Notes under the pieces: model-generated | Seen by the model: only the letters and a program-made list of their open reading frames with translations | The model's database searches: none | Told to the model about the DNA's origin: nothing | Assembly (NCBI GenBank): GCA_003023725.1 | Contig: PXYT01000079.1 | Location: forward strand, 1-12,869 | Length of the DNA: 12,869 bases | Reading direction: 5' to 3' | Origin: Sulfobacillus benefaciens | GTDB taxonomy: Bacteria; Bacillota; Sulfobacillia; Sulfobacillales; Sulfobacillaceae | Program-made: the position numbers and the translations under genes | Shown: positions 6,906-9,408 of the stretch, one piece after another | How the letters are laid out: the number at the start of each line of letters is the position of its first letter | Position numbering within the stretch: the stretch's first letter is position 1

Positions 6906-7034
6906 GTGATCTTACTCCTACCTTACTAAAGGATGCCGAATATAGGATCGTCCCGTCTGCATCAAATCAGCGGTGGTACGGGGACTACTCCGTCCTTCAG
7001 GAAGAGGGAGAGGAGCGCCGTGTCTCTCCTTTTC

Positions 7035-8159
7035 TCATGATGCGATCGGTTGTTGGATATACTGCCGGCCGTCACTCAGTTGCAGAACGTGTCCGGGTTT
7101 CCCGAATGTTTTGGGACGCTGATCGGAGTCAGCGGCGATGACGAGGCGCCCGCCCCTTTCACACCCCGGCATACTTTCCGCGAATAATGCCGGCGTAGAC
7201 CAGATCCCCGGCCTGAAAGCCCAACCGCTGTTTCTTTTACGGCGCGACGCATAGCGAATAGAAAACCCGTATTGATCGCTTCGGCATATTTGTCGTAGCC
7301 CTCGGCCCTTCACGGTTCCCACCTGGACAATAGGCGAAGAGGCGCATACAGTCATGGGCAGTGCTCGCTGCCACGCAAAGAGCATCGTAATTATGTTCTT
7401 TAGGCCGGTTATGCTGAACCCGTTGCATTTTGGTAGAAAGCCCTCCGGCCCCGCCTCCCACGGGGAGTCCCGTGGCTTGCCGTTGGGTCTACAGCTTCTA
7501 CCAGGCCGCATTCATGAACCCTGCTCCTCGCAGCGATTTTTTTGGTTCGTGTTTGGATATCCGGATGTCCAAATTCCGCGCCGGTTTTGCGATCTTCATC
7601 CTGATTACAATCGTGGCACGCTTTGCTGATATTCCGCCCCTGAAGTTTCGGGGGTTTCGAGCTTGTGCGTATCACATTTAACGTGTTCGGCGCTGAGGGC
7701 CGCAATGGGCAGGAATTTTCGGAGTTTCACTGCCGCATTAACCGTTTTATTTACGCGCGTTTGTAAACTTGGTGGTAGCCAACCTGTTCGACGCTTGCGA
7801 TGGAGAAACCTTGATTGACGATAACGAGTTTTCCGATTGCGTCGCGCTCGCCGCAGGCCACTCCGACTGTCGAGTTTGTCTTTAATATGGGCCTTGGCAA
7901 ACCTGTCGCTCAGAAAAACCGCCTTTGTACTGGGCGTCCCTTGCAGGGTCACGGCTACACCGGTTATTTTGGTCCCCGGATCGAACTTGAGTGGTATATC
8001 TTGCAATACCGACCCTTGTTGCACGCGATCCACCAGTCGCATAGGGAATGAGTACCGCTTATGGATTCCGGCTCGACCGCGTTCCAAGAGCAATCGCACG
8101 GGTTTTTCCGAGCACGGCATCCACGGTCTTTGATGTTTATCCAACACGAATACGGCCAT
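7035..8159 (-). pseudogene. iscB: IscB (OMEGA RNA-guided nuclease, IS200/IS605 superfamily) pseudogene
   Basis: ORF 7605-8159 carries the PLMP-type N-terminus (MAVFVLDKHQRPWMPCSEKP), RuvC-I (LKFDPGTKITGVAV), an Arg-rich bridge helix (RRARRNRKTRYRQSRFLHRKRRTGWLPPSL) and RuvC-II (LSAEHVKCD..AEYQQ). Homology then continues only in shifted frames. These hold the HNH C-terminal half ACHDCNQDEDRKTGAEFGHPDIQ (7621-7553) and RuvC-III GLPVGGGAGGLSTKMQRV..PKEHNYDALCV. The C-terminal pieces are VKGRGLRQICRSDQYGF, GFQAGDLVYAGIIRGKYAGV and LQLSDGRQY. Internal stops lie at 7498-7500, 7489-7491, 7237-7239 and 7159-7161. Confidence 0.85.
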
Positions 8160-8400
8160 GTTAAAAACTCCTTTGCCCTTACGGGCCCGGTGACACGTTC
8201 TGACGACCCTCTCTCCTCGCCAAAGTTATCCCAGCTGGTTTGGCCCGTCATACCCTCGCACCTCTAGCCGGCTGTTTAATGACGGGCGGCAGAGTGGGAA
8301 ACCGGAGAAGCATTCCCCGCTGCCCTAACCGAAATAACTAAAGTACCCTAGGCACGAAAGCTGGTCAACCCAGGAGCTTTCACAAGTCCTGTCCTTTAGG
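8160..8400 (-). ncRNA. Candidate IscB omegaRNA (HEARO-type guide RNA scaffold)
   Basis: ORF-free region immediately 5' of iscB on the same strand. Nested helices read on the minus strand are GGCAG 8324-8320 / CUGCC 8292-8288 and GGGAA 8317-8313 / UUCCC 8300-8296. There is also a perfect 9-bp helix GCCCGUCAU 8287-8279 / AUGACGGGC 8251-8243. A GCCC-GUAA-GGGC GNRA hairpin (8186-8175) abuts the AAAGGAG RBS. The 5' boundary is only estimated. Confidence 0.6.
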
Positions 8401-8418
8401 ACGGCGTGGCTGAGTTGT

Positions 8419-9408
8419 CTATCCCCACCGGATCGCCGCCATAGCCATGAGACCCGTAACCATCCCCAAAGGCAGGGCTATGCCCCACACCATGAACATA
8501 GTGCGCACCACCACCCATTTCACCTTCAGTGGATTTAATGCGGTGCCCGTCCCCAATAATGCTCCATCCGTTGTTTGCGTTGTACTCACCGGCATCCCCA
8601 ACAGGGCCGCCAGACTGACTGTTAGGGCTGCCGCGCTTTGAGTGCTCAGCGCATTCATGGGGTCCAAGCGAATGATATGCCCTCCCACGGTTTTGGCGAT
8701 ACGCACTCCGCCTCCCCAAAATCCTAGAGCCCAAAAACCCAAGGGGACAACCACGGAAATCCAGGACACGTGATAATGGACATGATGACCCCATAGCATC
8801 AGGGTCAGCGCCATCAGTCCAATGGCCTTTTCTTGATCGTTGGCCCCGTAGGCTAAGCCCTGCCACACTGCACTCCCGTATTGCAAACGTTTCAGAGAGC
8901 GGTATCCGGACAAAGACGTCAAGCTCAAAACATCCCATAGCAGCCGCGTCAACAAAAATGCTGCGACAAACCCTAACACAACCGACAGGCCCATCCCCAC
9001 AAGCACTGTGAGAAGCCCTGCCCAGTGAATAAACCGGGTATCCCCAGACGCTATCGCAGCCCCGACCATTCCTCCGCCCAAGGCCATGGTCATACTGGTA
9101 GGCATCCGCATGCGCCAAGTGACAAATACGCTTAACACCGCAGATCCCACGGCGACAGCCAGTACATCGGGATTGGCTTGGTGAAAATTGATGATGGCTA
9201 CGGTAATGGTCCGGGACACCGCGGTGCCAAACAAGACAGGACCTAAGGCGACGCTGCCCACAAGCACAGGAAAAATGAGGGCCGGTGCGATCACTCCCCC
9301 GCGCAGGAATGTGGCCATCAGATTACCGCCATCGTTAAAACCGGCCAACACACTGAACAGGGCAATTAATACAAAAATGCCGATATAAATAGAATCCACA
9401 GGGGCCAC
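8419..9408 (-). CDS. PiT-family inorganic phosphate (or sulfate) transporter
   Basis: 329 aa and multi-TM. Both halves carry the PiT signature (AGFNDGGN near the N-terminus and AYGANDQEKAIG in the second half). The start is GTG at 9408, with AAGGAAAG 3 nt upstream. Confidence 0.85.
   Translation of the reverse strand: MAPVDSIYIGIFVLIALFSVLAGFNDGGNLMATFLRGGVIAPALIFPVLVGSVALGPVLFGTAVSRTITVAIINFHQANPDVLAVAVGSAVLSVFVTWRMRMPTSMTMALGGGMVGAAIASGDTRFIHWAGLLTVLVGMGLSVVLGFVAAFLLTRLLWDVLSLTSLSGYRSLKRLQYGSAVWQGLAYGANDQEKAIGLMALTLMLWGHHVHYHVSWISVVVPLGFWALGFWGGGVRIAKTVGGHIIRLDPMNALSTQSAAALTVSLAALLGMPVSTTQTTDGALLGTGTALNPLKVKWVVVRTMFMVWGIALPLGMVTGLMAMAAIRWG

Follow-up and report, generated by a model that had tools for sequence, protein, structure and literature searches.

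The window analysed here is a stretch of 12,869 nt from Sulfobacillus benefaciens, and the features considered below, from pit to the far transposon end, lie on its minus strand. The upstream host gene is pit (8419-9408), which encodes a PHO4-family phosphate transporter (Pfam PHO4, E-value: 1.4e-47) and ends with a TAG stop codon at 8421-8419. It is followed in the same orientation by the scaffold core of an omega RNA (8205-8414), a 45 nt omega RNA 3' tail (8160-8204), an N-terminal iscB remnant with 184 open codons (7605-8159), a C-terminal iscB remnant (7041-7633) and the remnant of a far transposon end (6970-7045, with a boundary placed to within approximately ±10 nt). Downstream of the iscB relic are an EamA gene and then a GH31 glycosidase operon. 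The 259 nt between iscB and pit (8160-8418) had been described as free of ORFs, and this is essentially right: the only ORFs contained within them are 21 aa and 33 aa in length, and all others overlap the edges of the interval.

The scaffold begins at 8414, 4 nt past the pit stop codon, and the 16-nt guide position (cggtggggatagacaa, 8430-8415) therefore overlaps the end of pit, covering its last three codons, the stop codon and ACAA. This agrees with the expectation, made from the sequence alone, that the RNA 5' end would fall next to or inside the 3' end of pit. Among approximately 60 relatives, scaffold position 1 is exactly where sequence conservation sets in, the stretch before it being variable; the DNA at 8415-8430 is assigned to the flank, outside the element. 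At the other end, alignment and folding identified sequence, approximately 75 nt past the iscB remnant, that is homologous to a compound subterminal hairpin located after iscB in three related loci (L012, L014 and L015). Based on this homology, the element spans roughly 8414-6970 (approximately 1.45 kb). The outer stem of the far-end hairpin no longer forms in the window.

A promoter and terminator scan of the locus gave nothing above background. No promoter-like or terminator-like signal was found between pit and the RNA, which is consistent with read-through from pit. Included in the list of terminator-like sites is the variable hairpin of the RNA (8343-8355, minus strand), which is followed by UUUAGUUAUUU, a U-rich run; together these could be a weak pit terminator. 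Some differences in gene content are evident around other copies of the locus. In L007 and L010, synteny past EamA changes and a GDPD gene and ABC transporter replace the GH31 glycosidase operon, which puts a strain-level rearrangement breakpoint near window position ~5638. L001, L007 and L010 have short Y1_Tnp ORFs (94-104 aa) within a few kb of the locus. In L001, a TnpB gene (540 aa) and a Y1 transposase ORF (94 aa) lie approximately 4 kb upstream of pit (L001:3267-5237), representing a second IS200/IS605-type element close to the locus.

When the minus strand was searched with the Rfam HEARO covariance model (RF02033), which represents the omega RNA of IscB nucleases (PMC13565253; bioRxiv 10.1101/2023.03.14.532601), a full-length match was obtained at 8414-8205 (86.6 bits, E-value: 8.4e-17, model positions 1-211). 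This score is above the RF02033 gathering score of 83 bits, and the placement of the match, upstream of iscB (start at 8159) and on the same strand, is the canonical one, as the sequence-only reading had proposed. The region 8414-8160 can thus be classified as a genuine IscB omega RNA (HEARO) gene. The scaffold comprises stem P1 (8414-8407 paired with 8371-8364), two small hairpins, a pseudoknot strand, the variable hairpin, a long closing helix (8338-8327 paired with 8240-8225), a GGGAA/UUCCC hairpin and a 9-bp stem. P1 and the closing helix are both taken from the covariance model and both show strong covariation in relatives. Of the helices that had been recognized by eye, the perfect 9-bp stem (8287-8279/8251-8243) is present within the RF02033 helix set, and the GNRA hairpin at 8186-8175 (GCCC-GUAA-GGGC) does abut the iscB RBS (AAAGGAG, 8174-8168). 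The double helix of GGCAG/CUGCC and GGGAA/UUCCC is present as well; GGGAA/UUCCC is a model helix, while for GGCAG/CUGCC the model contains just two of the pairs. A possible long-range pairing of CUGG(G)UU (8372-8366) with AACCAG (8240-8235) was dropped, as these bases sit in P1 and the closing helix and covariation favours their partners in those two stems (8414-8407 and 8338-8327, respectively).

Two covariance models were constructed, R1 covering the 3' domain and R2 the 5' domain, and all loci were realigned to both. Double-change cells numbered 755 for R1 and 137 for R2, with 0/500 shuffles reaching either value. The family secondary structure is supported by this covariation among homologous loci and is predicted to form in the window copy, which scores 99.6 bits with R1 and 52.1 bits with R2; these scores are mid-range, with the window itself among the training sequences of both models. 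Minimum free energy folding of the RNA region was unexceptional (z = -1.29), and the apical hairpin (8272-8255) is degenerate in the window. The 3' tail contains, in order, a weakened penultimate hairpin, the motif GUCACC, the GUAA-capped hairpin (8186-8175), the RBS and the iscB ATG. The GUAA-capped hairpin, with GUCACC ahead of it, is also found in related loci (L012, L015, L082, L026, L013, L055, L092, L098 and L100), where compensatory changes maintain it, and it is therefore part of the omega RNA.

The iscB start codon (ATG, 8159) and RBS are intact. The 184-codon ORF (8159-7605) is a full-length match to Pfam RRXRR (E-value: 1.9e-55), corresponding to the N-terminal half of IscB, and spans the PLMP, RuvC-I, bridge helix and RuvC-II segments. 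Lesions were mapped by tblastn with intact relatives, using the 427-aa protein of L012 as a reference. IscB residues 1-179 are encoded in one open frame (8159-7623), the HNH core (residues 180-226) is deleted with a change of frame, and beyond this deletion there are four further frameshifts and three in-frame stops, extending to approximately 7041. The frame-breaking lesions thus total eight (five frame changes and three stops), and the RuvC-III and TAM-interacting domains are lost from the open ORF. The protein gene had been described as riddled with lesions, and this mapping bears that out: iscB is dead, with no ORF remaining for a functional IscB nuclease (for which approximately 400-500 aa would be expected). 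The part that is still open has also changed. In two panels, the N-terminal ORF differs at 14/70 and 15/63 conserved columns, making it the most substituted sequence in either panel; the loss of 15/63 conserved residues is the highest of 31 sequences (p = 1.6e-5). These substitutions fall in the PFTI, RAR and NPEISG motifs.

All eight lesions are located in the 3' half of iscB (7041-7633) and none in the first 537 nt (7623-8159), a distribution with P ~0.006 under a uniform rate in a post hoc test. This clustering is probably due to chance, and it would be compatible with some constraint on the element's 5' portion. Comparison of strains indicates that decay of the iscB remnant is still under way: the window strain carries a private 21-nt deletion at 7153 that is absent from 11 other copies of the locus, as well as two private substitutions (at 7408 and 7145) with no counterpart in those copies. 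Dead iscB copies are also common elsewhere, as many database entries are fragmentary. Among database "IscB" proteins of ≤320 aa, many are frameshifted or internally deleted (P0002, P0004, P0008, P0011 and P0022), with P0022 missing the whole HNH/RuvC-III region.

In total, 80 related loci were collected from metagenomes, nearly all of which contain an intact iscB (415-500 aa). Rfam scores were compared in a panel of 33 RNAs made up of the window and 32 RNAs located next to mostly intact iscB genes. The 32 relatives score 47-171 bits (median 119), with the closest relatives (L012-L015) at 121-146 bits. The window score of 86.6 bits is the third lowest of the 33, with 2/32 relatives scoring less. 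At near-invariant columns (those that are at least 90% conserved), 8/43 are changed in the window and 35 kept; this number is the highest among 32 loci and compares with a panel mean of 2.1 (binomial p = 9.5e-4). The near-invariant family motifs scored were the 5' GUCA, the CCCC/GGGG hairpin, ACGUU, CACC, CCAG, GUG and CAAGC. Scaffold position 1, a G in all relatives listed, is C in the window, and the first P1 pair, adjacent to the guide, is broken in the window alone among 63 distinct sequences. Further changes affect the base of the CCCC/GGGG hairpin and convert ACGUU to UAGUU, CACC to CAGC, CCAG to CCGG, GUG to GUA and CAAGC to CCAGC.

The sequence-only reading had noted no obvious disruption of the RNA helices. 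When the window was scored against the Rfam model, however, 13/67 pairs were non-canonical or gapped, including 3/26 of the near-universal pairs (those canonical in ≥95% of relatives), a class in which most loci have none broken. With our own models, 9/55 pairs are broken (46/55 canonical), compared with a panel median of 7 (range 4-17). The window keeps 3/5 pseudoknot pairs (panel range 3-5), and the tail hairpin and RBS are intact. Judged by these pair counts, the overall helix integrity of the window RNA appears ordinary for the panel. The closest relative of the window's lineage shows only 58% protein identity; as the lineage has no close relative, some of the RNA deviations could be lineage-specific changes that predate the death of the element.

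The decay of the RNA can be set against that of the gene beside it. In the N-terminal ORF, the excess over the panel baseline is 17% of conserved residues, which corresponds to approximately 0.076 substitutions per site; in the RNA, the excess is 0.14 per conserved site (95% CI 0.04-0.29). As the RNA value is at least as large as the estimate for the dead gene, the RNA is no better preserved than iscB, and the contrast that had been drawn between a lesion-riddled gene and an undamaged RNA is not upheld. At this divergence, approximately five extra broken pairs would be expected and approximately two are seen (P = 0.11). Expressed as totals, 9/55 pairs are broken versus approximately 12 expected under neutral drift, which is slightly better but not significant (P = 0.11); helix preservation is thus not significantly above neutral. 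A likely explanation for the folded appearance of the RNA is that it has no reading frame and that substitution at approximately 8-14% of sites breaks few helices. Damage to the RNA is not flagged by stop codons or frameshifts, and so the same decay that is conspicuous in the ORF is hidden in the RNA.

In the assembly collection, 56 blocks contain a product identical to the 184-aa sequence. Eleven other copies of the locus were compared with the window (12 copies in total), ten of which were retrieved by exact identity to the 184-aa product, the eleventh being L011. These copies are 99.2-99.7% identical to the window, which is too close for a rate test, so that only polymorphism counts are usable. 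The dead element is therefore fixed among the sampled strains. In the 210-nt RNA there are four variants among the 12 copies: two substitutions (8270 C/G and 8248 A/G) and two 1-nt insertions (C at 8255 in five copies and T at 8234 in two). The window haplotype has lost a C; where other strains carry it, three pairs at the foot of the apical hairpin are restored. The RNA haplotypes score 91.2, 90.4, 86.6 and 80.2 bits with the Rfam model, and the lowest of these (L001/L008) is under the RF02033 gathering score of 83. Polymorphism per kb is 19 in the RNA, 20 in the non-coding spacer and 6 in pit; compared with neighbouring neutral DNA, the RNA thus shows no sign of purifying selection. The segregation of indels in a structured RNA likewise argues against current purifying selection. 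Low polymorphism in the N-terminal ORF was rejected as evidence of constraint because the copies were fetched by exact identity to the protein that it encodes, making the low value an artefact of retrieval.

If the RNA were used in trans, an intact IscB should be encoded elsewhere, as had been suggested. When the N-terminal fragment was compared with 5.8 billion protein clusters, nothing more than 63% identical was found apart from the fragment itself. That search gave only matches of ≤320 aa, many of them frameshifted, and was repeated with a stitched 367-aa IscB reconstruction, for which nothing in the 5.8 billion clusters was more than 51% identical. The clusters include at least six metagenome-assembled genomes (MAGs) of the organism, all of them incomplete. 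A search of genome contigs with the 184-aa fragment returned the same locus only (L011). No close partner was therefore found, the best full-length match being 51% identical in a collection whose MAGs are incomplete. The best match, P0121, is an intact IscB, called at 481 aa, whose locus carries an omega RNA of its own. It is 49% identical to the reconstruction, and its scaffold sequence is clearly different from that of the window. P0121 comes from the same metagenome series, including a sample (ERZ27237525) that also holds the window locus, and is binned in another MAG (GCA_021820345.1). The P0121 locus (L092:2340-2550, also L101) lies on a plasmid-like contig with ParM-like, EAL, sigma-70-like and rve transposase genes. 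The P0121 ORF start (L092:2501) falls inside its own omega RNA, suggesting that the annotated start is probably too far upstream.

Based on these results, we predict, with a probability of roughly 80%, that the locus is a fixed, immobile and dead copy of a non-autonomous IS200/IS605-type IscB element whose RNA is drifting neutrally. The element would have inserted 4 nt past the pit stop codon, co-oriented with pit. While it was alive, read-through from pit would have produced the omega RNA, its 5' guide (16 nt, 8430-8415) would have been copied from the 3' end of pit, and its scaffold would have bound the IscB encoded downstream. By analogy with published IscB and omega RNA work, this complex would have cut the emptied donor site, leading to restoration of the element. 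Both co-orientation with an upstream gene and a guide derived from the flank are part of published IscB biology (bioRxiv 10.1101/2023.03.14.532601). Deletion of the HNH core, together with frameshifts, would then have killed the nuclease gene, after which the whole element, including the RNA, would drift without selection. Because the RNA is eroding along with the gene, the locus is better described as an ordinary transposon relic than as a specially preserved orphan guide RNA. The proposal that an orphan omega RNA has been retained fits poorly with an RNA that has the most changed conserved positions of 32 loci, a low Rfam score, indel polymorphism and no close partner.

Three other explanations would each assign a present function to some part of the relic. 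It is quite unlikely that selection keeps the omega RNA as an orphan, made as a 3' extension of pit and serving, in trans, an intact IscB from another locus in the cell. In favour of this, most of the helices persist, the score lies above the Rfam threshold, neither the tail hairpin nor the pseudoknot has been lost, and P0121 with its own omega RNA is found in the same metagenome series (including ERZ27237525); trans use of omega RNAs has also been discussed in the literature (bioRxiv 10.1101/2023.03.14.532601) and proposed for protein-less PATE elements. This RNA, however, has the most changes at conserved nucleotides, its invariant G1 is mutated and its guide-adjacent P1 pair is broken (unique among 63 sequences), its indels segregate at a density like that of the spacer and one of its haplotypes falls under the Rfam threshold. 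P0121 itself, at 49% identity, has a clearly different scaffold, is found in a different MAG and has a plasmid-like context. Furthermore, the guide targets the 3' end of pit only, which has no obvious use unless the element excises, and the far end is degenerate. The relic might instead have been exapted as a cis element of pit, a 3' UTR that stabilizes the pit mRNA or aids termination, and we regard this as highly improbable. The RNA does start 4 nt past the stop codon of pit, and neither a promoter nor a terminator separates the two. In addition, two departures from the family consensus (ACGUU to UUAGUU) place a U-rich run behind the 8355-8343 hairpin, a site that is in the terminator scan list. 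That hairpin has only five pairs, however, and the number of terminator-like sites (three) does not exceed the 3.7 expected in shuffled sequence. Fixation of the locus in all sampled strains would suit a pit 3' UTR but is equally expected of an immobile neutral relic, and the RNA carries three times as much polymorphism per kb as pit.

It has also to be considered whether the truncated 184-aa IscB is still made and acts with the RNA as a nuclease-dead RNA- or DNA-binding factor. Its RBS and ATG are intact, its Pfam RRXRR match is full length and the first 537 nt are free of all eight lesions (P ~0.006), but the test of lesion distribution was post hoc, and retrieval by exact identity accounts for the low polymorphism seen in this segment. 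The protein has had 15/63 conserved residues replaced, the most of 31 sequences, with the PFTI, RAR and NPEISG motifs hit, and it lacks the RuvC-III and TAM-interacting domains, on which nuclease-lobe folding and DNA recognition depend. We therefore consider activity of this product to be extremely unlikely. Retention of the 5' part of the element as a whole (the RNA and the open ORF), whether through loading of the structured read-through RNA in trans by a distantly related, P0121-type IscB from a plasmid-like element in the same cell or as a functional pit 3' UTR, would similarly be a surprising outcome. A dead element with a neutrally drifting RNA is the explanation that we favour.

The locus is an object of a known kind that a standard Rfam model detects, and its degree of decay is ordinary. 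It resembles other HEARO/omega RNAs (RF02033) in its full-length model match, its position and strand upstream of iscB, and its helices, pseudoknot and tail hairpin. Its scaffold also starts where conservation between elements starts, with variable flank at the guide position. It is different in that 8/43 near-invariant nucleotides are changed (including the first G), its score is near the bottom of the family, its apical hairpin (8272-8255) is degenerate and its partner gene is dead. Like IS200/IS605 IscB elements of the ISC family (Meers et al., bioRxiv 10.1101/2023.03.14.532601), the window element has a single iscB, an omega RNA at one end, no tnpA, a co-oriented position behind a host gene and a homologous compound hairpin at its far end. 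In contrast to those elements, its nuclease is inactivated, its far-end hairpin is unpaired, and every strain sampled has it at one fixed site, no second copy being seen. With PATE-like protein-less elements it shares an omega RNA that lacks a functional nuclease in cis. Here, however, the protein gene persists as a decaying remnant instead of having disappeared cleanly, the element has degenerate ends and a single copy, and no cognate nuclease was found among the protein clusters searched.

These results matter little past annotation, but they do offer a caution: a structured RNA beside a pseudogene can look intact by eye, while comparison with relatives and strain variants reveals that it is eroding at about the pace of the gene. 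A truly retained RNA would represent a natural case of an omega RNA outliving its nuclease; the evidence here argues against retention.

Several other arrangements were observed among the related loci. A groundwater contig (L041) carries tandem HEARO RNAs (L041:54-266 and L041:588-824; 110.5 and 103.6 bits) upstream of a single intact iscB, so that one of the two is a standalone omega RNA copy beside a complete element. IscB elements adjoin a tmRNA match in L013 (2239-2317) and a tRNA gene in L065 (17-90), and in L036 (156-298 and 2274-2350) an IscB element is located among pieces of a group II intron. Weak matches to the omega RNA domain models were also identified away from the main iscB in L017 (471-653) and L067 (4579-4663), and these may be relic or partial copies.
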